A stretch of DNA of 64,000 nucleotides from a bacterium (GCA_037141055.1 JBAXDH010000005.1:90-64089); one strand, 5' to 3'. Shown: positions 43,456 through 60,070, numbered from the stretch's first letter. Translations and numbers: made by a program. Notes: generated by a model not told the origin, from the letters alone.

Positions 43456-43476
43456 AGACGCGCCATAGGCGCGTCT
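43456..43476 (+). terminator. GC-rich hairpin after bcp (9-bp stem AGACGCGCC / GGCGCGTCT, 3-nt loop)
   Basis: Read directly. No T-tract follows. Confidence 0.4.
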
Positions 43477-43505: not shown

Positions 43506-44510
43506 ATGGCAACAGAAGTGAACAAGGAAAAAGTGAAAGCCCTGCAGCTTACACTGGACAAACTGGAGAAGACATACGGTAAAGGTACCATCATGCGGCT
43601 TGGCGACAGCGCCATCGAGGCAGTCGATGTAATCTCCACCGGATCCATCGGGCTCGATGCCGCACTGGGAATTGGCGGTCTGCCAAAGGGCCGTGTAATT
43701 GAAATCTATGGCCCCGAGTCATCGGGGAAAACAACGCTTGCATTGCATGCGATTGCGGAATCGCAGAAAGCCGGCGGCATTGCCGCATTCATTGATGCCG
43801 AACACGCCTTTGACCGGTTTTATGCGCAGAAACTTGGCGTGGATGTCGAGAACCTGCTCGTATCGCAGCCTGACAACGGTGAGCAGGCGCTTGAAATTAC
43901 TGAAAACCTCATCCGTTCCGGGGCCATCGACATCATTGTGATTGACTCGGTTGCCGCCCTTACGCCCAAAAGCGAAATAGAAGGGGAGATGGGCGATTCA
44001 AAAATGGGGCTTCAGGCCCGGCTCATGTCGCAGGCATTGCGAAAACTGACTGCCACTATCAGCAAAACAGCCACCTGCTGCATTTTCATCAATCAGCTCC
44101 GCGAGAAGATCGGCGTAATGTTTGGAAATCCGGAAACCACCACTGGAGGCAATGCGTTGAAATTTTATGCTTCCGTTCGCCTTGACATCAGGCGGCAGAC
44201 ACAGTTAAAAGAAGGGGATGAAGTGGTTGGTAACCATGTGAAAGTCAAAGTTGTCAAAAACAAGGTAGCGCCGCCATTCCGCAAGGCCGAATTTGATATT
44301 ATCTTCGGGGAAGGGATTTCCAAACCCTTTGAAATCATTGACCTGGCAACGGAGTTGAACGTGATTAAAAAAAGCGGCTCATGGTTCAGCTACGGCGATA
44401 CGAAGCTGGGACAGGGCCGGGATGCCGTGAAAAAAATTCTGCAGGATAATCCTGAACTTGCAGACGAACTTGAAGGAAAAATCAGGGCTGTATTGAACAC
44501 CCATGTGTAA
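43506..44510 (+). CDS. recA: Recombinase RecA
   Basis: 334 aa with Walker [10 protein letters not shown] and the FIDAEHA and [29 protein letters not shown] motifs. Confidence 0.97.
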
Positions 44511-46106: not shown

Positions 46107-47843
46107 TTATTTTAGCTTCATGGAGGTTATGATCCCTGCGATTTTTTCATCCAGGCGCTTTTCAGTCTGCCCGAATTCATCGATGTTGCGAAGTCTCTCA
46201 CGCACCCCGAAATAGAATTTGATCTTTGGTTCGGTCCCTGAAGGCCGTACGCTGATAATGCTTCCGTCTTCAAGCAAAAATTGCAGGACATTCGATTTTG
46301 GAAGATTGATCGGTGTTTCCAGTCCCGTTTCAACCACCTTTTCTTTTAGCAGCAGGTAATCCTTGATTCGGACTACTTTGGAATTGTTGACCACTACCGG
46401 TGGATTTGCCCGGTAATCGACCATCATTTGCTGGATCTCCTCCGCCCCGGTCTTGCCTTTGCGGGTAACAGAAATCAGGCCTTCCTTGAAGAAACCATAC
46501 TTTTGGTAAATTTCCAGGAGAAGGTCAAACAGCGATTTTCCCGAATCGGCCATCCATGCAGCTGTTTCGGCAATCAGCGCGCAGGCGCTGATTGCATCCT
46601 TGTCGCGCACAAAATCGCCGATCAGGTAACCGTAACTTTCCTCGCCGCCAACGATATAGGTCTTTTTTCCTTCATGCTGCCTGATGACATCCGCAATGAA
46701 TTTAAACCCGGTGAGGCACTCGAAATATTCAACGCCAAAGGATTCTGCAATTTCCGATAAAAGTTTGGTCGTTACAATCGTGGAAACAATAAACTCATTC
46801 CCCTTCAGTTTGCCGAGTTCTTTCCACCTGCTGAGGATGTAGTAAAATATCAGTGCGGCGGTCTGGTTACCATTCAGCAGGACCATCTCATTGTTGTGAT
46901 TTCTTACGGCGATACCAACTCGGTCGGCATCCGGGTCGGTGGCCATAACCAGGTCTGCGTGCAACTCCCCGGCAAGCTTTATGGCCATATCGAGCGCATC
47001 ATGTTCTTCAGGGTTAGGTGAATGGACGGTTGGGAAGTTACCGTCGGCAATTGCCTGTTCCCTGACCATGTGAATGTTTTCAAAGCCGAACCGTGATAAA
47101 ATGTCGGGCACAAGTTTGCGGCCGCAGCCGTGGAGAGGCGTATAGACAATCTTCAGGTCTTTCTGGCGCCTGATGACATCCGGGGAGAGGGACAGCGCAT
47201 GAATCCGGTCGAGATATTCAACGTCGATTTCGGCGCCGATGCTGATGATGTTTGCCTTAACTCCGGCCCATTTTACATCATCGATGGAAGTGATCTTCTG
47301 AACTTCCATGATGACATTTTCATCATGGGGGGCAATCATCTGGGCGCCATCGTCCCAGTATGCCTTATACCCGTTGTATTCCTTCGGGTTGTGCGAAGCG
47401 GTGACCATGACTCCGCTCTGGCAGCCGAGTTTTCTTATGGCGAAGGAAAGTTCAGGGGTAGGGCGGAGGTCGTCGAACAGGAAAACCATGAATCCATTCG
47501 CCGAAAGCACTTCAGCTACGATCCGTGCAAAATATTTGCTGTTGTTCCTGCTGTCGTGGGAAATGGCCATTTTTACAGGATTGAGCGCAGGGAACATCTT
47601 TTTAAGGTAATTGGCAAGTCCCTGGGTGGCCATTCCAACCGTGTACTTATTCATCCTGTTTGTCCCGACTCCCATGATACCCCGAAGGCCGCCGGTGCCG
47701 AATTCGAGGTCGCGGTAAAATGAATCGGTCAGTTCAACAGTGTTTGTCTCCAGTAAGGATTTTACCGCAGTTTTCGTTTCATCATCAAAACTGCCGTTCA
47801 GCCAGGTATTTGCACGGTCTAAAATATGCTTTTCAATCTCCAT
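46107..47843 (-). CDS. Phospho-sugar mutase (phosphoglucomutase/phosphomannomutase family)
   Basis: 578 aa with the active-site loop TASHNPKEYNGYK and the metal loop DPDADR. Confidence 0.85.
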   Translation of the reverse strand: MEIEKHILDRANTWLNGSFDDETKTAVKSLLETNTVELTDSFYRDLEFGTGGLRGIMGVGTNRMNKYTVGMATQGLANYLKKMFPALNPVKMAISHDSRNNSKYFARIVAEVLSANGFMVFLFDDLRPTPELSFAIRKLGCQSGVMVTASHNPKEYNGYKAYWDDGAQMIAPHDENVIMEVQKITSIDDVKWAGVKANIISIGAEIDVEYLDRIHALSLSPDVIRRQKDLKIVYTPLHGCGRKLVPDILSRFGFENIHMVREQAIADGNFPTVHSPNPEEHDALDMAIKLAGELHADLVMATDPDADRVGIAVRNHNNEMVLLNGNQTAALIFYYILSRWKELGKLKGNEFIVSTIVTTKLLSEIAESFGVEYFECLTGFKFIADVIRQHEGKKTYIVGGEESYGYLIGDFVRDKDAISACALIAETAAWMADSGKSLFDLLLEIYQKYGFFKEGLISVTRKGKTGAEEIQQMMVDYRANPPVVVNNSKVVRIKDYLLLKEKVVETGLETPINLPKSNVLQFLLEDGSIISVRPSGTEPKIKFYFGVRERLRNIDEFGQTEKRLDEKIAGIITSMKLK

Positions 47844-49814: not shown

Positions 49815-51140
49815 CTATTTTGTTGTATCGACCCCGATGCAGTAATAGGCGAACCCTTTACGTTTCATTTCAGCGATCTCGTATATATTCCTGCCGTCAA
49901 AGATAACATGGCCTTTCAGCAGTTTCTTGATGATGTTGAAATTGGGAAATTTGAATTCGGGCCATTCAGTCACCAGCATCAGGCAGTCTGCATCAATCAG
50001 TGCATCGTACTGGTCGGGAGCATAGTAAATTTTCTCTCCGAGGATGCGCTGGGTTTCATGAATGGCGACCGGGTCGTATGCTTTAACTTTCACACCGGCA
50101 TCAAGCAGTTTTTTGATGATGACGAGCGATGGTGCTTCCCGCATGTCGTCGGTTTGCGGCTTAAATGAGAGTCCCCAAATTGCGACTGTCTTGCCTGCAA
50201 GGTCTCCGCCAAAATGCCTTACCATTTTATTGAAAAGTACCGATTTCTGATCGTCGTTTACCGCTTCAACGGCTTTCAGCACCCGCAGGCTGTATTTGTA
50301 ATCTTCCGCAGTGTGAATCAATGCTTTAACATCTTTAGGAAAACAAGAGCCACCGTATCCGACACCCGGATAGATGAATTTGTTGCCGATGCGCGAATCT
50401 GATCCGATTCCTTTTCTCACCATGTTGATGTCGGCACCTACAATTTCACACAGGTTGGCGACATCGTTCATGAAACTGATTTTGGTGGCAAGCATTGAAT
50501 TTGCTGCATATTTCGTCATTTCCGCGGATGTAATGTCCATGAAAATGATCGGATGCCCGTTTAACGTGAACGGACGGTAGAGTTCTTTCATCAGTTCCTC
50601 TGCGCGGGGGGAATCGCAACCGACAACGATACGGTCGGGTTTCAGGAAATCATCGATTGCAGCTCCTTCTTTGAGAAATTCGGGATTGGAGGCTACGTCG
50701 AACTCAATGCTCACGCCACGCTTATCCAACTCATCCTGAACTGCCTTCCTTACTTTTTCGGCCGTTCCGACAGGTACCGTGCTTTTTGTGACGATCAGCA
50801 GGTAATTTTTCATGTTTTTACCGCAATCGCGTGCCACGCTGAGAACATACTGAAGGTCCGCGCTTCCGTCTTCATCCGGCGGAGTGCCGACAGCGCTGAA
50901 AATCACCTCACAATCATCGAGCGCCTCAGCGATGTTTGTCGTGAACCGTATACGGTCTTTTTTCATATTCCTGTGAACCATGTCTTCAAGTCCGGGTTCA
51001 TATATAGGAATAATGCCTTTTTTCAGATTTTCAATTTTTTTCTGGTCGATGTCAACACAGGTGACTTCGATCCCAACTTCTGCAAAACAAGTACCGGTGA
51101 CTAATCCAACGTACCCGGATCCTACAATTGCAACTTTCAT
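49815..51140 (-). CDS. ugd: UDP-glucose 6-dehydrogenase
   Basis: 441 aa with [16 protein letters not shown] and the catalytic region [10 protein letters not shown]. Confidence 0.9.
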
Positions 51141-51369
51141 GGTGTTGTGTTTTTTGAGTGTTGTAAACGATTGAACAAATATATTAATTATATAGCAAGG
51201 CTAAAGCGTTTTTCTTTAATTGCATGATATTTCACACAAAGAAAACCTAATTCTTTCGTTTTTTTTATCTGAGGGGGAGTTGGAAATCCTTACCGGAATA
51301 CATCTGATTTTCGCGTAGATGGTTGCCTTGCAAAAACGGCGGAGAATGTTGGTTTTTGTGATTCTTCAA

Positions 51370-52173
51370 TCAGATATTCAGCCGTATTTGAATTGCCTGG
51401 ATGTCATTGCGCAGTTGTTTAACGGTTTCCACAAGGTGGTAATTCTCCGAATTGACATTTTCAGGTATTGTCGGGCTGATATAATGAACAAATTGCCATA
51501 TTTCGCGGATATCCTGGATGTTGATCTCATACGGATCATAGAGCGGGTTCAGTGAATGCAGCACCAGTTTACCCTCTGTTTTGATCCTGTTTTCAATCAC
51601 TTTGAACACAATGCCATCTTCAGAGGTCAGGATGATGTATGCATCACGGTCGCGAAGCGTTGACCAGTCCTGGATGAAAACGCCCGTAACCCATGATCCA
51701 TGGGGAATGGGCAGCATCGAATCACCGTTTACCTGGAAGGTTCTGTATTTTTTCTGCCGGGATAAAAATGGCAGCCGGAAGGTTGGCAGGATGCTGATGT
51801 ATTCAGGATCTGCAAATCCCCCGGTATACCCGGCTTTTGCCTTTTCCGAAACGAGTTCGATGTTGTCTTCATTGTCTGAGCCTACCGTCGTGGTGAGGAT
51901 GCGAAGGTTTGAACCCTTGATGAAGACATCGTAGCCCCTTTCGAGTTGCCGGAACTGACTTTCCGGAATTTTAGCCAGGTCGACCCTTATGAGCGTATCG
52001 ATGGCGACATTGTAGTATTTGGAGAAAGCAATCAGGGCATCAAATCCCGGCTGAGCGATGTTATTCTCATAGCCGCTCAGGGTGGAACGCTTCATGTTCA
52101 GTGAAACGGCGACATCGTCCTGGGTGCGTCCGCGCCGTTTTCGTAAAAATTTTATGTTGCTGCTGAAAAACAT
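51370..52173 (-). CDS. CI/XRE-type HTH + S24 peptidase repressor (non-canonical LexA-like)
   Basis: 267 aa with an N-terminal XRE HTH (LRKRRGRTQDDVAVSLNMKRSTLSGYENN) and a C-terminal S24 domain with GDSM (VNGDSMLP). Divergent from a dinB-containing unit. Confidence 0.7.
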   Translation of the reverse strand: MFFSSNIKFLRKRRGRTQDDVAVSLNMKRSTLSGYENNIAQPGFDALIAFSKYYNVAIDTLIRVDLAKIPESQFRQLERGYDVFIKGSNLRILTTTVGSDNEDNIELVSEKAKAGYTGGFADPEYISILPTFRLPFLSRQKKYRTFQVNGDSMLPIPHGSWVTGVFIQDWSTLRDRDAYIILTSEDGIVFKVIENRIKTEGKLVLHSLNPLYDPYEINIQDIREIWQFVHYISPTIPENVNSENYHLVETVKQLRNDIQAIQIRLNI

Positions 52174-52196
52174 TTTTTTTGCGTTTTGAAAAATAA

Positions 52197-52228
52197 TGAT
52201 TATATTATCGTCGGAGAAATGATTAGAA
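52197..52228 (+). promoter_or_regulatory. Candidate SOS-type operator, copy A (TGATTATATT-N3-GTCG-N4-AATGATTAGAA)
   Basis: The three conserved blocks (10 + 4 + 11 nt) are identical to those at 55697-55728. It lies 24 nt upstream of the repressor ATG and upstream of the ORF6N-dinB unit. Contains the direct repeat AATGATTA-N15-AATGATTA. Confidence 0.45.
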
Positions 52229-52340
52229 ACATGGCAAATATAATAAAAACAATCACCAGAATGCCGGAATGACGAAATTGTTGATAAAAATTGCCTGTTT
52301 GTGATATTACCTTTTGGTCCTGAGTCGGATTAAGCAGGAA

Positions 52341-52592
52341 ATGAATATGAAAAACGCGACTGAAATAAGGGAGGAGATCATTTCGCAGATTTATGTTATC
52401 CGTGGAAGGAAGGTGATGCTCGACAATGATCTGGCGAGGATTTACGGAGTGACGACAGCAAGGCTAAATCAACAGGTCAGAAGAAATATAGATCGTTTTC
52501 CGGCAGACTTTATGTTTGAACTTTCCCTGGAGGAGTATCGGAACTTGATGTTGCAAATTGCAACATCAAGTTCGCAAACCATTGATAACTAG
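52341..52592 (+). CDS. ORF6N-domain protein, short and possibly 3'-truncated
   Basis: IRGRKVMLDNDLARIYGVTTARLNQQVRRNIDRFPADFMFEL matches the ORF6N/KilA-N-like domain. The ORF ends soon after the domain (…IATSSSQTIDN). Confidence 0.5.
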   Translation: MNMKNATEIREEIISQIYVIRGRKVMLDNDLARIYGVTTARLNQQVRRNIDRFPADFMFELSLEEYRNLMLQIATSSSQTIDN

Positions 52593-52618
52593 TTTTGTTG
52601 CGTTACTCTTCTTAATAT

Positions 52619-53788
52619 ATGCCGACTCTTATCCGCAACATAATCCATCTCGACCTCGACACCTTCTTCGTGTCGGTGGAGCGACTTCTCCGCCCGGAAC
52701 TGGCAGGAAAGCCGGTAATCATCGGCGGTACCTCCGACCGCGGGGTGGTGGCGAGTTGCAGCTATGAGGCACGGAAGTTCGGTATCCATTCGGCCATGCC
52801 TATGAAGATGGCGCGGGCGCTATGCGGCGATGCGATCCTCGTGCGGGGCGATATGGAATTGTATTCGAAGTATTCGGACACGGTTACCGAAATCATCGCC
52901 GAAAAGGCTCCGGTGTATGAAAAAGCCTCCATCGACGAGCATTATCTTGATCTTACCGGGATGGACCGTTTCTTTGGTCTTCAGAAATGGAGCCATGAGC
53001 TGCGTGAAAGCATTATTAAAAACACCGGGTTGCCCATTTCCTTCGGCTTGTCGGTGAACAAGACCGTTTCAAAAATTGCCACCGGGGAAGCCAAGCCCAA
53101 CGGGGAACTGTTCGTGGAACGCGATGCCGTACAGCCCTTCCTCTCGCCGCTCTCCATCCGCAAAATTCCGGGAATAGGAGAGAAAACATACCGGCTGCTC
53201 CGTTCCATGGGGGTGGTAACGATCGATACCCTGAGCCACATCCCGGTTGGCATGATGGAACAGGTGATGGGAAAGAACGGCATCGTGATATGGGAGAAGG
53301 CCAACGGCATCGACCGCACACCTGTTTATCCTTACCACGAGGCCAAATCGGTGAGTACCGAAAATACCTTTGAACAGGACAGCATCGACATCATCAGGAT
53401 GAAGGAGATCCTGGTGAAAATGGTGGAAAAGATCTCGTTCGAGTTGCGCGACAAGCAGAAACTCACAGCCTGTATCACCGTGAAGATCCGCTATTCGAAC
53501 TTCGACACCCATACGCTGCAGAAACAGCTTCCCTATACGGCTTTCGATCATCAGCTCATCCCGGTGGCAAAGGAACTCTTCGACCGTCTTTACCAGCGCC
53601 GCATGCTGATCCGCCTCATCGGGGTGCGCTTCAGCAGCCTCATATCGGGAAACCCGCAACTCAACATGTTTGACGACAATGTGGAGATGGTGAACCTGTA
53701 CCAGGCCCTCGACCGCATCCGGCGGAAATACGGGCAGAAGATCGTGACGAGGGGAGTTGCTGTAAAAAATAGCGAAATAGCGAAATAG
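52619..53788 (+). CDS. dinB: Y-family DNA polymerase IV
   Basis: 389 aa with catalytic motifs intact (HLDLDTFFVSVE, CSYEARKFG, SIDEHYLD), so it is not an inactive ImuB. Confidence 0.85.
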   Translation: MPTLIRNIIHLDLDTFFVSVERLLRPELAGKPVIIGGTSDRGVVASCSYEARKFGIHSAMPMKMARALCGDAILVRGDMELYSKYSDTVTEIIAEKAPVYEKASIDEHYLDLTGMDRFFGLQKWSHELRESIIKNTGLPISFGLSVNKTVSKIATGEAKPNGELFVERDAVQPFLSPLSIRKIPGIGEKTYRLLRSMGVVTIDTLSHIPVGMMEQVMGKNGIVIWEKANGIDRTPVYPYHEAKSVSTENTFEQDSIDIIRMKEILVKMVEKISFELRDKQKLTACITVKIRYSNFDTHTLQKQLPYTAFDHQLIPVAKELFDRLYQRRMLIRLIGVRFSSLISGNPQLNMFDDNVEMVNLYQALDRIRRKYGQKIVTRGVAVKNSEIAK

Positions 53789-53798
53789 CGAAATGGTG
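53771..53798. repeat. AGCGAAAT x3 + GGTG tandem 8-mer array spanning the dinB stop codon
   Basis: Read directly. It encodes the last residues of DinB (…NSEIAK*). The unit and the AGCGAAATGGTG junction match the minus strand of 33765-33804. Confidence 0.85.
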
Positions 53799-53945
53799 GG
53801 TATCTCAATTGAAATGCTCAAGGTCATCGGATAGTCATATAATCAGCTACATGAAAATAGGTGTTTGCCCTACAAGCTTTTTCTGAACGACCTACATCTC
53901 CTAAAGAATTTCATTCTTAAATTGATCGCCATAAAAAGTAAAGCT

Positions 53946-55592
53946 ATGAAGCGACTGATAACACTAATAATTTTGACGGTCATTGTTTCTACAACATATT
54001 GTCAACTGCCCAATGGCAGTATTGCTCCTGATTTCACCCTGAAGGATATCGACGGGAATACGCGGCATCTTTACGACTATCTTGATTCGGGGAAAGTGGT
54101 GGTCATCGACTTCTTCGAAGTCCTTTGCGGCCCATGCTGGATTTACCATGAAACACACGCTCTCGCCCATGCATTCAATGTCTGGGGGCCTCAGGGAACC
54201 AACCAGCTGATGGTGTTCGAAGTGGAAGGAATCAAGAGTTCGGTTAATCAGATCAAGGGATTGGCAAACCCCACCAAGGGAAACTGGACAGATGGCGAGC
54301 CATTTCCGTTTATTGCCACCTGTGCTCCGAATGGCGACAAAATAGTAAAGGATTACACGATCAATTTTTTTCCGACGGTGTACATGATCTGCCGCGACAG
54401 GCGTATTAAACTTATCGGTACAGCAGACACAGCAATGATTCATGCACGGCTTGGCCAATGCCCGGTAACCCCTGCTGACAGCCTTTTTCTGGACCTGTTG
54501 AGTATTGACTCGATTATGCCGGTAACACAATCAAAGACAGTTCACCCCATCCTTCAATTTCAGAATTATGGCACAAACCTTATTACCAGTGCTAAAATCA
54601 GCGCAACCATTGATAATCTTTCACCTGTATCACTAACATGGTCAGGAAATCTGAAAACTTATGATGCACTTCATTTCGACGGAAATATATTCTCTCAGGT
54701 TACAGACGGTTCCCACATCATCAGGTATCTTGTTACTGAACTGAATGGACAAACGACCGGTTTTAAACAGGACACCATCAGCATACGCTTCACCAGCGAC
54801 CAGGTCCCTTTCCCCGTGCCATTCACGCAGAATTTTACCGATCCGGTTTTTCCATATAATAAATGGACGATAAACAATGCCTATAAAAATGTTCCGACCT
54901 GGGAACGCGCTGAACTTGGATATGCCAACTCTTTAAGAATTCCTTACTTTAACATACTTCCCGATTATACCAGTGAACTATACATGCCATGCCTTTCATT
55001 TGCAGGGAATGACAAGCCCTGCATGCGCTTTGATCTTTCCTGCACCCATAATAACTCAGTGATACGCCAGGGTGGTTATGACCTGATAGAATTCGATTAT
55101 TCACTCAACTGCGGAAATACATGGCAACTGATGGCACAGATATCTTCCCTTGACCATCAGACGGCTCCGGATGATTCCACCTATTTTATCCCGACGGAAA
55201 CCCAATGGAAACCTATGTACATCGATCTCACAAAAATTGCCGGGAGAGAGTCTGTGCTGGTAAGGCTCGCAACCAGTCCTGCATATGGAAACAATATGTA
55301 CCTGCGTAACATCCGTTTTGATAATACAGCCGGCATCAATGATGAGGCAATATCGCCGGGAATTCATGTTTACCCGGTTCCGGCAACGGATGTGCTGTAT
55401 TTGAAATTATCCAGGGCAGTGAATATCTCTGTGATTGAACTGTTTGATATAACAGGGGCCGTGGTGCTCCGGATGGCCAATCCTGCGGGCAGGGAAATTG
55501 CAATCCCGATTGCGCAAGTCTCACGTGGCCTTTATTTTTTGCGCATTCTCAGCGATGGGTACATTTCAGTACGAAAAGTTCAGGTCGAATAA
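53946..55592 (+). CDS. Secreted thioredoxin-fold (TlpA/redoxin-like, CGPC) protein with a T9SS type A C-terminal sorting domain
   Basis: Start trimmed to ATG 53946 (MKRLITLIILTV). Has APDFTLKDIDGN...VVVIDFFEVLCGPCW and a C-terminal beta-sandwich tail …VYPVPATDVLYLKL…GLYFLRILSDGYISVRKVQVE. Confidence 0.7.
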   Translation: MKRLITLIILTVIVSTTYCQLPNGSIAPDFTLKDIDGNTRHLYDYLDSGKVVVIDFFEVLCGPCWIYHETHALAHAFNVWGPQGTNQLMVFEVEGIKSSVNQIKGLANPTKGNWTDGEPFPFIATCAPNGDKIVKDYTINFFPTVYMICRDRRIKLIGTADTAMIHARLGQCPVTPADSLFLDLLSIDSIMPVTQSKTVHPILQFQNYGTNLITSAKISATIDNLSPVSLTWSGNLKTYDALHFDGNIFSQVTDGSHIIRYLVTELNGQTTGFKQDTISIRFTSDQVPFPVPFTQNFTDPVFPYNKWTINNAYKNVPTWERAELGYANSLRIPYFNILPDYTSELYMPCLSFAGNDKPCMRFDLSCTHNNSVIRQGGYDLIEFDYSLNCGNTWQLMAQISSLDHQTAPDDSTYFIPTETQWKPMYIDLTKIAGRESVLVRLATSPAYGNNMYLRNIRFDNTAGINDEAISPGIHVYPVPATDVLYLKLSRAVNISVIELFDITGAVVLRMANPAGREIAIPIAQVSRGLYFLRILSDGYISVRKVQVE

Positions 55593-55696
55593 TATCCGGC
55601 TTCAGTAACCTCCTGTCGTCAGGCTGTCATTTTTTTTCATGAATTTGCAGGGAAAATGGCAGTTTGTTTGATTTCATTTTCCTTTTTGTGATTTAT

Positions 55697-55728
55697 TGAT
55701 TATATTGTAGTCGTTACAATGATTAGAA
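55697..55728 (+). promoter_or_regulatory. Candidate SOS-type operator, copy B, 42 nt upstream of dnaE2
   Basis: TGATTATATT-GTA-GTCG-TTAC-AATGATTAGAA. Same blocks and spacing as 52197-52228. The flanking TTTTG, 9 nt upstream, is also shared. Confidence 0.45.
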
Positions 55729-55769
55729 TATAGTCAAAACCTGTTTCCTGGTTATTTCGCCTTTTCACC

Positions 55770-58700
55770 ATGTTTCTCAATTGCCACTCCTACTATTCCC
55801 TCCGCTATGGAACGATCTCCATCGAAAACCTCGTGGAGGAGGCGGTGAAAAATCATGTTACGGCCCTGGCGCTTACCGACATCAATAATTCCACCGGCAT
55901 CATGGAGTTTGTTGCCGCATGCAGGGAAAAAGGAATCAAACCCCTCGCGGGGATCGAGTTCAGGCGCGACGACCGGTTGCTTTACACCGGGCTGGCAAGG
56001 AACAATGAAGGTTTTCGTGAACTGAACGAATTTCTGAGCCGCCATAACCTGGGGGACATGCTTTTGCCGGACAGGCCTCCGGAGATGGAGGATGTATTTG
56101 TGATCTACCCGCTAGCCTCGCATACCTGCCTCCGCTCCAGGGGGAGAGGGGGTGCCGGAGGCGGGGTTGATGTAGTTGGTATCCGCCCCGCCGATCTCAA
56201 TCCTTTGATCCTTTCCCGCCACCGCGACCTGGTTTCCCATATGGTACTCATGGCACCGGTCACCTTCAGGAACAGTAAAGAGTACGAATTGCACCGTAAT
56301 TTCAGGGCCGTCGGCCACAATGTATTGCTGAGCCGGCTGGAACCTCACCAGGTGGCTGCCCCAGGCGAGGTAATGTTTCATGCAGATGAATTAAGGGATA
56401 TCTGCCGCGATTTTCCCGAAATTCTGCGCAACACCGAAAAGCTGACCGAAACATGTTCCATCGATTTTGACTTCAAAGCCTGCAAGAACAAGAAAACCTT
56501 TACAGGCGACCGCTATGATGACCTCATCCTGCTTGAAAAGCTGGCCATGGACGGGCTTCAGTACCGGTATGGCAAAGGGCATGGCGAGGCAAGGCGCCGC
56601 ATCCGCCATGAACTGGATATTATTGACAAAATGGGTTTTGCCGCTTATTTCCTCATCACCTGGGACATCATCCGGTATTCGATGTCCCGCGGCTTTTATC
56701 ATGTCGGCCGGGGGAGCGGTGCCAACAGCATCGTGGCTTATTGCCTGCGCATCACCGATGTGGATCCCATTGAACTCGACCTTTACTTTGAGCGGTTTAT
56801 CAATCCCAAACGAACCTCACCGCCCGATTTCGACATCGATTACTCCTGGAAGGAGCGTGACGAGGTGCTCGACTATATCTTTAAACGCTATGGCCATGAG
56901 CATACCGCCTTGCTCGGTGCCATGTCGACATTCCGTGATAAATCCATTTACCGTGAACTGGGGAAGGTTCACGGCCTGCCAAAGGGTGAGATCGACGCCT
57001 TCCTGAAGCATCCGGAGGAGGCGATTCATAAAAATCACATCATCCGGAAGATCAGTGAACTTGGCGAGATGATGGCCGACTTTCCCAACATCCGCAGCAT
57101 TCATGCCGGCGGGGTGCTGATTTCCGAGGAACCTATCACCTGTTACACGGCGCTCGACCTGCCACCGAAGGGTTTTCCGACAACGCAGTTTGACATGTAT
57201 GTGGCGGAGGATATCGGCTTCGAGAAACTTGACATCCTCAGCCAGCGGGGCATCGGCCACATCTATGAGGCGGCGGAACTCGTGAAAAAGAACAGGGGGA
57301 TCAACGTGGATGTGCACCAGGTTCGGGCATTCCAGGAAGATGAAATGGTGAAGGAGCAGTTGCGCAATGCCCGCACGATCGGCTGCTTTTACGTGGAAAG
57401 TCCCGCCATGCGCGGACTGCTGAAAAAACTGCATTGCGACAATTACCGCACCCTCGTGGCGGCCAGTTCGATCATCCGCCCCGGCGTTGCACGTTCGGGG
57501 ATGATGAAAGAGTATATTTTCAGGTTCCATAATCCCGGTAAGTTTAAATATCTCCACCCGGTGATGGAGGAGCAGCTGAAGGAAACGTTCGGAGTGATGG
57601 TGTACCAGGAGGATGTGCTCAAGATATGTCACCACTTTGCCGGCCTCGACCTGGCCGATGCCGATGTGCTTCGCCGCGCCATGAGCGGAAAATACCGGTC
57701 GAAGAAAGAACTTCAGCGCATCGTCGATAAGTTTTTTGAAAACTGCCGGAATTTTGGTTATCCCGAAGAGGTTACAAAGGAGGTGTGGCGGCAGATTGAA
57801 TCGTTTGCAGGCTATTCCTTCTCCAAGGCTCATTCAGCCTCCTATGCCGTGGAAAGCTACCAGAGCCTTTACCTCAAGGCCCATTACCCGCTCGAATTCA
57901 TCACCGGGGTGATCAACAACTTCGGTGGGTTCTATTCATCCTGGGTCTATTTTAATGAGGCGAAAGTGTCGGGAGCGAACCTGCATGTGCCCTGCGTCAA
58001 CCGGAGTGAATACAAGACCAGTATCAAAGGGAATGATATTTTCCTTGGATTCATCCATGTGGCAGGGCTGGAGTCGGAAACAGGGAAAGCGATTGATGAT
58101 TTACGATTTACGACCCCACCCCCGGCCCCTCCCCAAACGGGGATGGGAGAGCGATCCTACGCAAGTATGGAGGATTTTATTCAGCGTGTTCCGGTCACAC
58201 TCGACCAACTCATCATTCTTATCAGGGTGGGTGCTTTTCGCTTTACCGGCAAACCAAAGGCTTCGCTGTTGTGGGAGGCGCATATGCTGCTGGGAAAAAA
58301 TCAGGCGGCAGCCGGCAGTCGGCAGTTTGCAGTTCGAACAAGCGAAATTGACCAGGGAATCGAAAATCGTAAATCTGAAATTCAATCGTCAATCGTCAAT
58401 CGTCCAATCGAAAATTTGTTCCCCTTTAAGACTGATCTTAAGAAATTCGTGCTTCCTGCGCTTGAACAGAATATTATCGCAGATGTTTACGACGAGATTG
58501 AACTGCTTGGCTTTCCAGTCTCATACAGTTATTTCGACCTGCTGGAGACAAAGTTCCGGGGCGACATCCTGGCGCACGAAATGGCTTCTCATGTCGGGAA
58601 GACCATTCGGATGCTGGGACTGCTGGTTACAATAAAATATGTACGTACCGTGAGGCGGGAGTGGATGCATTTCGGCACTTTCATCGATGTCAACGGGCAT

Positions 58701-58862
58701 TTCTTCGACACCGTTCACTTTCCGAAAGCCGTCACGCTGTATCCTTTTCGCGGCGACGGTGTTTATCTTGTCAAAGGAAAGATTGTTGAAGAGTTTGGAT
58801 TTCCCAGCATGAACGTGGAGAAAATGGCGAAGATGCCGCTGCAGCCTGATCCCCGGGGATGA
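55770..58862 (+). CDS. dnaE2: Error-prone DNA polymerase III alpha-like subunit (DnaE2-type)
   Basis: 1030 aa with an N-terminal PHP domain (CHSYYSLRYG), a Pol III alpha core (YFLITWDII, GRGSGANS, DFDIDY) and an OB-fold C-terminus. Shorter than replicative DnaE and next to dinB and a LexA-like gene. Confidence 0.8.
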   Translation: MFLNCHSYYSLRYGTISIENLVEEAVKNHVTALALTDINNSTGIMEFVAACREKGIKPLAGIEFRRDDRLLYTGLARNNEGFRELNEFLSRHNLGDMLLPDRPPEMEDVFVIYPLASHTCLRSRGRGGAGGGVDVVGIRPADLNPLILSRHRDLVSHMVLMAPVTFRNSKEYELHRNFRAVGHNVLLSRLEPHQVAAPGEVMFHADELRDICRDFPEILRNTEKLTETCSIDFDFKACKNKKTFTGDRYDDLILLEKLAMDGLQYRYGKGHGEARRRIRHELDIIDKMGFAAYFLITWDIIRYSMSRGFYHVGRGSGANSIVAYCLRITDVDPIELDLYFERFINPKRTSPPDFDIDYSWKERDEVLDYIFKRYGHEHTALLGAMSTFRDKSIYRELGKVHGLPKGEIDAFLKHPEEAIHKNHIIRKISELGEMMADFPNIRSIHAGGVLISEEPITCYTALDLPPKGFPTTQFDMYVAEDIGFEKLDILSQRGIGHIYEAAELVKKNRGINVDVHQVRAFQEDEMVKEQLRNARTIGCFYVESPAMRGLLKKLHCDNYRTLVAASSIIRPGVARSGMMKEYIFRFHNPGKFKYLHPVMEEQLKETFGVMVYQEDVLKICHHFAGLDLADADVLRRAMSGKYRSKKELQRIVDKFFENCRNFGYPEEVTKEVWRQIESFAGYSFSKAHSASYAVESYQSLYLKAHYPLEFITGVINNFGGFYSSWVYFNEAKVSGANLHVPCVNRSEYKTSIKGNDIFLGFIHVAGLESETGKAIDDLRFTTPPPAPPQTGMGERSYASMEDFIQRVPVTLDQLIILIRVGAFRFTGKPKASLLWEAHMLLGKNQAAAGSRQFAVRTSEIDQGIENRKSEIQSSIVNRPIENLFPFKTDLKKFVLPALEQNIIADVYDEIELLGFPVSYSYFDLLETKFRGDILAHEMASHVGKTIRMLGLLVTIKYVRTVRREWMHFGTFIDVNGHFFDTVHFPKAVTLYPFRGDGVYLVKGKIVEEFGFPSMNVEKMAKMPLQPDPRG
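58358..58415. repeat. In-frame simple-sequence patch inside dnaE2 (AATCGAAAAT … TCAATCG x3 … AATCGAAAAT)
   Basis: Read directly. It encodes GIENRKSEIQSSIVNRPIEN. ATCGTAAATC here is inverted relative to GATTTACGATTTACGA at 58098-58113. Confidence 0.7.
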
Positions 58863-58933
58863 AAAACGTTCCAAAACAAACCTTCCAGGTTTTTAAAACC
58901 TGGAAGGTGCAGATAATCAAAAGTATAGGATGA

Positions 58934-60070
58934 TTAATTGATCGCAAACGGATGTGAAGTGACCACGTCAATATTCCGCTGAATCAGCTTGTGGATGTTC
59001 TTCAGATATGGCTTTTCATCCGCTGAACAAAATGAGAGGGCAGATCCGGTCTCACCGGCGCGGCCTGTCCTGCCGATGCGGTGCACATAAGTTTCAGCCT
59101 GCTCCGGGATCTCGTAATTGATGACATGCGTAAGTTTATCCACATCAATGCCCCTTGAAGCGACATCGGTCGCAACCAGTACGCGGATGCTCCGGCTCTT
59201 GAAATCTTTCAGGGCTTTGTCGCGCGCACTCTGCGACTTGTTGCCATGGATGGCCTGCGCCTTGATCCCGTTGCGGATAAGATCCTTCACAACTTTGTCG
59301 GCGCCATGCTTCGTACGGGTGAAAATCAATACGTTTTTAACAGATTCGTTTTCTAAAATATGCGTTAAAAGAAGCTTTTTGTTTTCTTTCTTTACGTGAT
59401 AAACCGATTGAGATACCAATACCGGAGGTGCGGTATTGGGCGACATGTTGAGAGAGACCGGGTTGTGAAGCAGTGATGCAGCCAGTTTCCTGATCTCTTC
59501 GGGCGCAGTTGCCGAAAAAAGCATTGTTTGCCTTTTTGCCGGGAGCTTCGCAGTAATTTTCCTGATGTCGTTGATAAATCCCATGTCGAGCATCCGGTCG
59601 GCTTCATCCAGCACAAGGTATTCCACCCTGTTAAGATGGACAAATCCCTGGTTCATCAGGTCGAGCAAACGGCCGGGAGCGGCAACGATAATATCCACTC
59701 CCTTTTGCAGGGCCTGGGTCTGTGCTTTTTGTGAAATGCCTCCATAAATGGTTACAAGCCGGATGTCGAGTCCTTTGCCGTAACTGGTAATTTCTTCGCT
59801 GATCTGGGCCACCAGCTCGCGTGTCGGGGCAAGGATCAATGTTCTTACTTCCCTGCGTGTATTGCGGTCTTTTTCTGTTTCGAGCAGTTGAAGAATCGGC
59901 AGTGCGAAGGCAGCAGTCTTGCCTGTGCCAGTTTGTGCGCATCCGAAAATATCTTTACCCTGTAAAATTACCGGGATCGCTTTTTCCTGGATTGGTGTCG
60001 GGATCAGGTACCCTTTTTTACTGACAGCCGTTAATAAAGGCTGGATTAAATTCAAACTTTCAAAAGTCAT
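58934..60070 (-). CDS. DEAD-box ATP-dependent RNA helicase (RhlE-like)
   Basis: 378 aa with Q motif TPIQEKAIP, motif I AQTGTGKT, DEAD, SAT and HRIGRTGR. Confidence 0.9.
   Translation of the reverse strand: MTFESLNLIQPLLTAVSKKGYLIPTPIQEKAIPVILQGKDIFGCAQTGTGKTAAFALPILQLLETEKDRNTRREVRTLILAPTRELVAQISEEITSYGKGLDIRLVTIYGGISQKAQTQALQKGVDIIVAAPGRLLDLMNQGFVHLNRVEYLVLDEADRMLDMGFINDIRKITAKLPAKRQTMLFSATAPEEIRKLAASLLHNPVSLNMSPNTAPPVLVSQSVYHVKKENKKLLLTHILENESVKNVLIFTRTKHGADKVVKDLIRNGIKAQAIHGNKSQSARDKALKDFKSRSIRVLVATDVASRGIDVDKLTHVINYEIPEQAETYVHRIGRTGRAGETGSALSFCSADEKPYLKNIHKLIQRNIDVVTSHPFAIN

Follow-up and report, generated by a model that had tools for sequence, protein, structure and literature searches.

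The 64,000-nucleotide stretch of bacterial DNA analysed here (GCA_037141055.1, JBAXDH010000005.1:90-64089; hereafter the window) carries a divergently transcribed gene for a 267-amino-acid (aa) repressor, the translesion polymerase gene dinB and a second polymerase gene, dnaE2, together with two copies of a 40-bp module, one between the repressor gene and dinB and one in front of dnaE2. With a probability of roughly 0.8, we read this module as a promoter-operator with paired sites for the neighbouring repressor, through which dinB and dnaE2 would be controlled after DNA damage. A preliminary description of the same DNA had proposed that the shared motif is the operator of the adjacent helix-turn-helix-S24 repressor, serving autoregulation and an SOS-like control of dinB and dnaE2, and this proposal is strongly supported by comparative evidence from conservation, from a rule governing the module at dnaE2, from homology of the repressor and from covariation. 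The repressor gene and the two putative modules with their component sites are as follows.

51370-52173, minus strand: repressor gene, 267 aa, non-canonical LexA type (HTH_3 and Peptidase_S24 domains)
52197-52236, plus strand: putative operator/promoter module A, position-weight-matrix score 50.0 bits
52197-52213, plus strand: predicted site A1, TGATTA-TATTA-TCGTCG
52220-52236, plus strand: predicted site A2, TGATTA-GAAAC-ATGGCA, after a 6-bp spacer
55697-55736, plus strand: putative operator/promoter module B, position-weight-matrix score 45.3 bits, ending 33 nt before the dnaE2 ATG
55697-55713, plus strand: predicted site B1, TGATTA-TATTG-TAGTCG
55720-55736, plus strand: predicted site B2, TGATTA-GAATA-TAGTCA, after a 6-bp spacer

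Two copies of the module in the window

As first delimited, copy A (52197-52228, TGATTATATTATCGTCGGAGAAATGATTAGAA) and copy B (55697-55728, TGATTATATTGTAGTCGTTACAATGATTAGAA) do share a repeat, with identity at 26 of 32 positions instead of the 25 claimed earlier, in identical blocks of 10, 1, 4 and 11 bases. The degenerate pattern had exactly two occurrences in the window when up to three mismatches were allowed and no match in 100 dinucleotide-preserving shuffles, and the similarity of the two copies is far beyond chance. Conservation in relatives showed that the element reaches 8 nt farther to the right than had been described, giving 40 bp at 52197-52236 and 55697-55736. The internal repeat (A/T)TGATTA-N15-AATGATTA was found in both copies, as was the TTTTG that ends 9 nt upstream of each (52184-52188 and 55684-55688). 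Copy A lies where it had been placed, flanked by the divergent repressor gene and followed by the ORF6N-dinB genes; it begins 23 nt away from the start codon of the repressor, which reads CAT in reverse complement at 52171-52173, and the equivalents of module A in most relatives are 19–33 nt from that codon. Copy B does precede dnaE2, at a distance of 41 nt between its end and the ATG at 55770 (42 in the preliminary description).

Architecture of the 40-bp module

The module is composed of two 17-bp imperfect palindromes with the consensus TGATTA-N5-TAATCA, which are separated by 6 bp and have their centres 23 bp apart. Alignment of the repressor-upstream DNA of relatives gave the majority consensus TGATTATATTGTA(A/G)TCG-N-AAAAA-TGATTAAAAA-N-TAATCA, and column counts over 78 distinct modules resolved each 17-bp unit as TGATTA-N5-T(A/C)(A/G)TC(A/G). 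Left half-sites were near-invariant, with TGATTA present in 70/78 modules for unit 1 and 66/78 for unit 2, and right half-sites were mostly TAATCG, TAGTCG or TAATCA. In the window, the 17-mers of sites B1 and B2 were the top single-site matches (19.9 and 20.7 bits), and copy B is a better palindrome than copy A.

The preliminary description had seen a direct repeat in these hexamers, and a repressor that recognises (A/T)TGATTA-N15-AATGATTA head-to-tail, with irrelevant right-hand half-sites, would agree with TGATTA being by far the best conserved element and with the weak right halves of copy A. The repeat is present as reported, but it is better read as the two strong left half-sites of tandem imperfect palindromes because the column counts revealed paired G/C dyads, G2 and C16 being complementary in 78/78 distinct modules and G25 and C39 in 76/78. 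Position C16 was invariant and C39 almost so, T12 and T15 were strongly conserved too, and the commonest right half of unit 2 was TAATCA, the exact complement of TGATTA. Copy B and most of the modules at dnaE2 and SRAP genes are good palindromes, and homologous regulators need both dyads of a 4-N5-4 palindrome (PMC8565304). Head-to-tail recognition is considered improbable on these grounds.

Distribution of the module among relatives and in metagenomes

Relatives of the repressor (62–93% identical) are encoded in 80 species-level loci, which together with the window made up 81 loci and 1.3 Mb of DNA and came from metagenome-assembled genomes (MAGs) labelled Bacteroidales, Prolixibacteraceae (placed in Marinilabiliales by NCBI), Draconibacterium and Lentimicrobiaceae. 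Synteny was strong in these relatives, in which the repressor gene is divergent from dinB and the dnaE2-like gene usually comes next after dinB. The 40-bp module scored at least 30 bits in 71/81 loci and was always oriented toward dinB or dnaE2, and matches at this threshold on both strands of the 1.3 Mb were restricted to the repressor-dinB region or upstream of dinB, or to the position directly upstream of dnaE2. The motif is conserved near the orthologous repressor gene and dinB in about 70 species, and no module was found elsewhere in this flanking DNA.

The presence of a second module followed the distance between the two polymerase genes. At distances of more than 1 kb from dinB, dnaE2 had its own module in 9/10 loci, 1–75 nt before its start codon, in comparison to none of the 21 loci with a dinB-dnaE2 gap of 150 bp or less and one of the 16 loci with a gap of 151–1000 bp, which often holds an ORF6N gene (9/10 separated loci versus 1/37 others; Fisher's exact p = 7e-8). 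The window belongs to the separated type, an unrelated gene for a protein sorted by the type IX secretion system (T9SS) lying between dinB and dnaE2, which are 1984 bp apart.

A gene-blind, exact-pattern scan of metagenome contigs yielded 120 loci, 100 of them with modules of at least 28 bits that were read in module orientation. The first recognised gene downstream was dinB in 61, dnaE2 in 11 and SRAP in eight, and another 15 modules adjoined a divergent repressor gene and were followed by a different gene or by nothing that could be identified; the association of the module is exclusive to the repressor gene, dinB, dnaE2 and SRAP. At SRAP genes (PF02586, E = 7e-40) the ATG begins with the last base of the module. 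In relatives the regulon probably extends to SRAP, and the SOS genes published for this phylum include SRAP, dinB and the pair of dinB with a DNA polymerase III (Pol III) alpha gene (Sanchez-Osuna et al. 2021, PMC8565304). The narrow regulon that had been proposed holds for the window, the 64 kb of this genome that was visible, where recA has no site, and the module of relatives also precedes SRAP genes.

Several side observations were made in these sets. Modules at the start of SRAP genes (metagenome loci L100, L117, L118, L122, L133, L175, L186 and L205, and viral contig L213) had no repressor gene nearby. A metagenome clade with a 276-aa repressor (L109, L153, L161, L181, L192 and L204) had a PF05635 gene of the 23S-rRNA-intervening-sequence type, encoding a four-helix bundle, as the first gene downstream. 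Finally, a phage family (L206-L229, about 20 viral contigs, and L185) carries TGATTA-TATTT-ACGTCG-TGGAAT-TGATTA-GTTTA-TTAGCA (21.6 bits) after a terminator-like hairpin and before a small membrane-protein gene and a 178-aa gene; this may represent either a phage promoter under the control of the host SOS repressor or, equally, a single chance match inherited in one family.

The repressor is a homologue of non-canonical LexA

The 267-aa protein has an XRE/CI-type N-terminal domain (HTH_3, residues 7–60, Pfam E = 7e-12) and a C-terminal Peptidase_S24 domain (residues 111–222, Pfam E = 6e-8). The Pfam search of the repressor matched only HTH_3, HTH_31 and HTH_19 at the N-terminus and gave no match to the LexA_DNA_bind winged helix (PF01726), and no NCBIfam LexA model matched the protein. 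Identity as a canonical LexA (COG1974) was ruled out by this lack of a winged-helix domain match. Residues A114-G115 (KAKAGY), S152 (GDSM) and K191 (VFKV) were invariant in 25 homologues, so the residues for cleavage are intact, with Ala114-Gly115 as the predicted cleavage bond and Ser152/Lys191 as the predicted catalytic pair.

Reference proteins were taken from the supplementary alignment Data S5 of Sanchez-Osuna et al. 2021 (PMC8565304). Identity of the repressor's C-terminal domain was 47% to P. actiniarum WP_025606010.1 (E = 1e-49) and 36% to S. agarivorans WP_075324850.1 (E = 3e-23), and by sequence the protein is a clear homologue of the validated non-canonical LexA of Bacteroidetes. 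In this family a penta-helical helix-turn-helix of the PF01381 (HTH_3) type replaces the LexA winged helix, and the N-terminal domain was helical in the AlphaFold model, with block-mean predicted local distance difference test (pLDDT) values of 88–92 over residues 1–40. The family also carries an additional alpha-helical segment beyond the S24 core; in the model a C-terminal helix was predicted at residues 240–264 with pLDDT mostly below 50, and the BLAST alignment to WP_025606010.1 stops at residue 237. Profile search of the PDB matched XRE-type N-terminal domains alone and no S24 structure.

Two loci showed covariation between protein and site. The half-sites TGACTA/TAACTA, in place of TGATTA, occurred only in the repressor upstream regions of L048 and L050, and only these two loci had the predicted recognition helix KRSTLNNYEN instead of KRSTLSGYEN (S33N/G34N), a candidate specificity-determining change. 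The covariation of half-site and helix is suggestive of the repressor being paired with the module, and suggestive only because it represents a single event.

Candidate promoter elements within and around the module

One further feature overlaps the right edge of site A2:

52235-52242, minus strand: candidate -7 box of the repressor promoter, TAnnTTTG (TATATTTG)

The sequence TAnnTTTG is what we take to be the Bacteroidota-type -7 element, and its assignment at 52235-52242 is a candidate one, promoter assignments here being made by consensus only. Its complement, CAAAnnTA, started at module position 39 in 51/80 modules; a further 19 have it at position -8, immediately to the left of the module. 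On the polymerase strand, TTTG was found 18–19 nt upstream of the module in 39/80 modules, and TATATTG inside unit 1 may serve as the -7 element of this strand. As both the spacers and the orientation of the module are conserved, it appears to carry promoter information in addition to the predicted operators. A scan for sigma-70 promoters and terminators gave counts at shuffle level and is unsuited to Bacteroidota promoters, and an Rfam scan of 50500-59500 gave no match, which makes a known RNA element unlikely.

As a side observation, the leaders that separate the module from the start codon of dinB or dnaE2 contained tandem arrays of 8-nt period with units GAAATAGC or GGTGAAAT, or the complement ATTTCGCC, in 3–9 copies. 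Such arrays were seen in at least 8/80 modules (L009, L012, L016, L017, L028, L031, L033 and L036), in comparison to arrays of any period in 9/400 random 200-nt windows. The window itself has two units (ATTTCGCC TTTTCACC) at 55752-55767, just before the dnaE2 ATG.

These elements bear on whether the module could be mainly a conserved promoter, for example of an alternative sigma factor, or the site of another regulator, with the neighbouring S24 protein not its binder. The fixed orientation to the downstream gene, the conserved spacers, the TAnnTTTG-like box and TTTG elements at fixed positions, and the frequent abutting or overlapping of the module with a start codon would all suit such a reading. 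It leaves the dyad symmetry unexplained, however, and the dyad-N5-dyad arrangement is the architecture of the proven operators of this repressor family. In addition, linkage of the module to the repressor gene is tight among the relatives, changes in recognition helix and half-site co-occur, and the target genes are classic SOS genes. It is important to note that promoter and operator roles are not exclusive and probably overlap here, and a module that is promoter without being the operator of this repressor is regarded as very improbable.

Evidence weighing against a repressor operator

A number of observations nevertheless count against the reading of the module as paired operators of the neighbouring repressor. 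Copy A has poor right half-sites (TCGTCG and ATGGCA), degenerate in this lineage, so that most of the support for the dyad reading comes from copy B and the relatives. Conservation is as strong in the spacers (TATTG and the A-rich run) as in the dyads and the orientation of the module is fixed, so part of the conservation must be due to promoter and not to operator function. The covariation of helix and half-site came from one evolutionary event in two related genomes, and cooperative binding is deduced from geometry only. The AlphaFold2 model, built from a 25-sequence alignment, was poor, with a mean pLDDT of 49.9 and the N-terminal domain alone confident.

The least probable alternative, a CI-type repressor with its operators in the immunity region of a prophage or mobile element, would fit the CI/XRE-type N-terminal domain, the N-terminal domain of ICEBs1 ImmR as nearest solved relative by sequence, the adjoining ORF6N gene of a type typical of phages and the one phage family with a module-like sequence, but was rejected as the flanks hold housekeeping genes (UDP-glucose dehydrogenase, recA and a DEAD-box helicase) and no phage genes, repressor-dinB-dnaE2 synteny is stable in about 80 species, the best relative in 2.9 million viral contigs was only 34% identical, and the ORF6N gene is a recent insertion absent from close relatives.

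Genes of the cassette and the rest of the window

The gene calls made previously in 51370-58862 were borne out by domain searches. The features downstream of the repressor gene, in addition to the modules, are the following.

52231-52272, plus strand: what is left of the original dinB 5' end (ATGGCAAATATAATAAAA...), at present a 13-codon open reading frame, its ATG being the dinB start codon (MANIVKNIIHLDLD) in L007, L008 and L011
52250-52642, plus strand: lineage-specific insertion of about 390 bp, which bears the truncated ORF6N gene as well as the start codon that dinB now uses (52619)
52314 or 52341 to 52592, plus strand: truncated ORF6N-domain gene (Pfam ORF6N E = 6e-25, 64/86 profile positions)
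52619-53788, plus strand: dinB, Y-family DNA polymerase IV (Pol IV), 389 aa (Pfam IMS E = 2e-46)
53865-55592, plus strand: thioredoxin-like secreted protein with a T9SS sorting tail, 575 aa (Por_Secre_tail E = 5e-9, weak AhpC-TSA match in the N-terminal region)
55770-58862, plus strand: dnaE2-like second Pol III alpha subunit (C-family), 1030 aa (Pfam PHP, DNA_pol3_alpha, finger and HHH_6)

Homology with L007 breaks off at 52249 and resumes at 52643, and relatives whose repressors are 93% identical lack the roughly 390 bp inserted between these points. ORF6N homologues were observed elsewhere in the cassette in 12 other loci, mostly between dinB and dnaE2, which suggests a recurrent passenger or accessory gene. 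DinB scored 289.8 bits against PRK02406 (NCBIfam DNA polymerase IV; cut-off 256) and retains intact catalytic motifs, LDLD at residue 11 and SIDE at residue 104. The dnaE2-like gene is syntenic with dinB in most relatives, and its protein scored below the NCBIfam cut-offs for both DnaE (530 vs 1002) and error-prone DnaE2 (NF004225; 455 vs 939). No homologue of the T9SS-tail protein occupied the corresponding position in any of the 80 related loci.

In the rest of the window, recA (43506-44510) had no operator-like site, and position-weight-matrix scanning found none in its upstream spacer, as had been described, nor in the recR region, where the weak resemblance noted earlier fell below scan thresholds. 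Extra single 17-bp sites were considered and rejected, the best of them (47309-47325, TGATGA-N5-TCATCA) lying within the coding sequence of a 578-aa gene. No SRAP gene is present in the 64 kb. A perfect GC-rich hairpin without a T-run, GACGCGCC-ATAG-GGCGCGTC, was observed at 43457-43476 between a redoxin gene and recA.

Comparison with known repressor systems

In Bacteroidetes, non-canonical LexA regulators have been shown by electrophoretic mobility shift assay to require both dyads and the length of the 5-bp spacer, and their targets are induced by mitomycin C (Sanchez-Osuna et al., NAR 2021, PMC8565304). The regulator of P. actiniarum binds CTAA-N5-TTAG and that of S. agarivorans binds GGA-N5-TCC (PMC8565304). 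Neither published motif is present here; the module has a conserved ATTA/TAAT dyad bordered by TG and CA, and CTAA-N5-TTAG had no match in the 64 kb. In the tree of that paper, Draconibacterium and one Prolixibacteraceae genome are each credited with two CTAA-group regulators, and Table S10 lists a computed dyad, ACTA-TAATT-TAGT, upstream of a Draconibacterium sp. M1 regulator (PMC8565304). Judged by sequence, the latter is near-identical to, and essentially, the dyad found here. Relatives were assigned in the paper to the CTAA-N5-TTAG class and the site presented here is not described there; our literature search found nothing relevant on TGATTA/TAATCA with LexA, nor on later Bacteroidota LexA motifs.

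The repressor shares with the CTAA group an HTH_3 N-terminus, an S24 C-terminus with the Ala-Gly bond and Ser/Lys dyad, a 5-bp spacer and, as predicted here, autoregulation through a dyad-N5-dyad operator in its own promoter, as well as control of SRAP and of dinB together with a paralogue of Pol III alpha, predicted here from the sites. It differs in its dyad, which is (TG)ATTA-N5-TAAT(CA) and not CTAA-N5-TTAG, in the obligatory pairing of sites across a fixed 6-bp gap, and in recA being no target in the window, the regulon so far comprising dinB, dnaE2 and the repressor gene itself, joined by SRAP in relatives. A second precedent is the Elizabethkingia anophelis paralogue WP_078407279.1, which has TTAC-AAATT-GTAA in its own promoter and is divergent from an error-prone polymerase gene, both being induced by mitomycin C (Figure 8, PMC8565304). 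This paralogue, one of several in Weeksellaceae, has the same local layout and likewise a diverged dyad-N5-dyad site in its own promoter, but its dyad sequence is different and a single site was reported in comparison to the conserved tandem pair of the module.

The pairing of sites also invites comparison to phage lambda. Its OR and OL operators are tandem 17-bp imperfect palindromes with short AT-rich spacers, in which one half-site of each is nearer the consensus. Lambda CI has the same combination of a CI-type helical helix-turn-helix and an S24 domain and is inactivated by RecA-stimulated self-cleavage, and its tandem operators resemble the fixed 6-bp gap of the module, suggesting cooperativity here. 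The two differ in that the present protein would regulate chromosomal polymerase genes and not a phage immunity switch, and in that cooperativity is here deduced from geometry. No close sequence similarity to lambda CI was found, and the PDB search returned no lambda CI chain.

The LexA-regulated imuA-imuB-dnaE2 cassettes of Proteobacteria and Actinobacteria are damage-inducible operons that likewise place a Y-family homologue and a second Pol III alpha under an S24 repressor, an arrangement that is predicted here. In contrast to these cassettes, the present locus has no imuA-like gene, its Y-family protein keeps the catalytic motifs and scores as Pol IV and not as an inactive ImuB, its alpha subunit is below the DnaE2 model cut-off, and its repressor is not a winged-helix LexA. 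A canonical imuA-imuB-dnaE2 cassette was therefore ruled out by the lack of imuA, the active-type Pol IV motifs and the sub-cut-off DnaE2 score.

Proposed mechanism

We infer that dimers of the 267-aa HTH_3-S24 protein would bind one per 17-bp palindrome, with pairwise cooperative binding made probable by the fixed 6-bp gap. The bound dimers would mask the promoters of the repressor gene and the polymerase genes, which overlap, blocking both divergent promoters. Following DNA damage, filaments of RecA on single-stranded DNA would stimulate self-cleavage at Ala114-Gly115 by Ser152/Lys191, and repression would be lifted so that the translesion and mutagenic polymerases are made. Where dnaE2 has been cut off from dinB by the inserted unrelated gene, as in the window, copy B would supply its module.

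A more far-reaching version can be put forward only tentatively and is rather doubtful. Two dimers might act cooperatively in the manner of lambda CI on an obligatory pair of 17-bp operators, 6 bp apart and set in face-to-face promoters, forming a sharp switch for dinB, dnaE2 and SRAP, with general SOS genes, recA among them, under another regulator or unregulated and the whole 40-bp module copied to the orphaned gene whenever the operon is split by genome rearrangement. Such a lambda-CI-like action may have been retained, or evolved anew, in this clade of chromosomal SOS repressors.

Biological significance

In summary, the module represents a lineage-specific operator variant of a known system. 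The logic of that system, namely autoregulation and the repression of translesion polymerases, has been known since 2021, and what is new is the recognition sequence and the obligatory tandem pair, in a regulon that appears small. The analysis yields an operator prediction, precise and testable, for non-canonical LexA in a large and mostly uncultured group of the class Bacteroidia, and adds another case of rapid motif turnover in SOS repressors. A small, mutagenesis-centred regulon of dinB, the dnaE2-like polymerase and SRAP is suggested. The view of the SOS response itself is unchanged, and the practical use of the motif lies in the annotation of regulons in Bacteroidota MAGs. The second module at the separated dnaE2 constitutes a clean natural experiment, which points to selection keeping the polymerases under the repressor.

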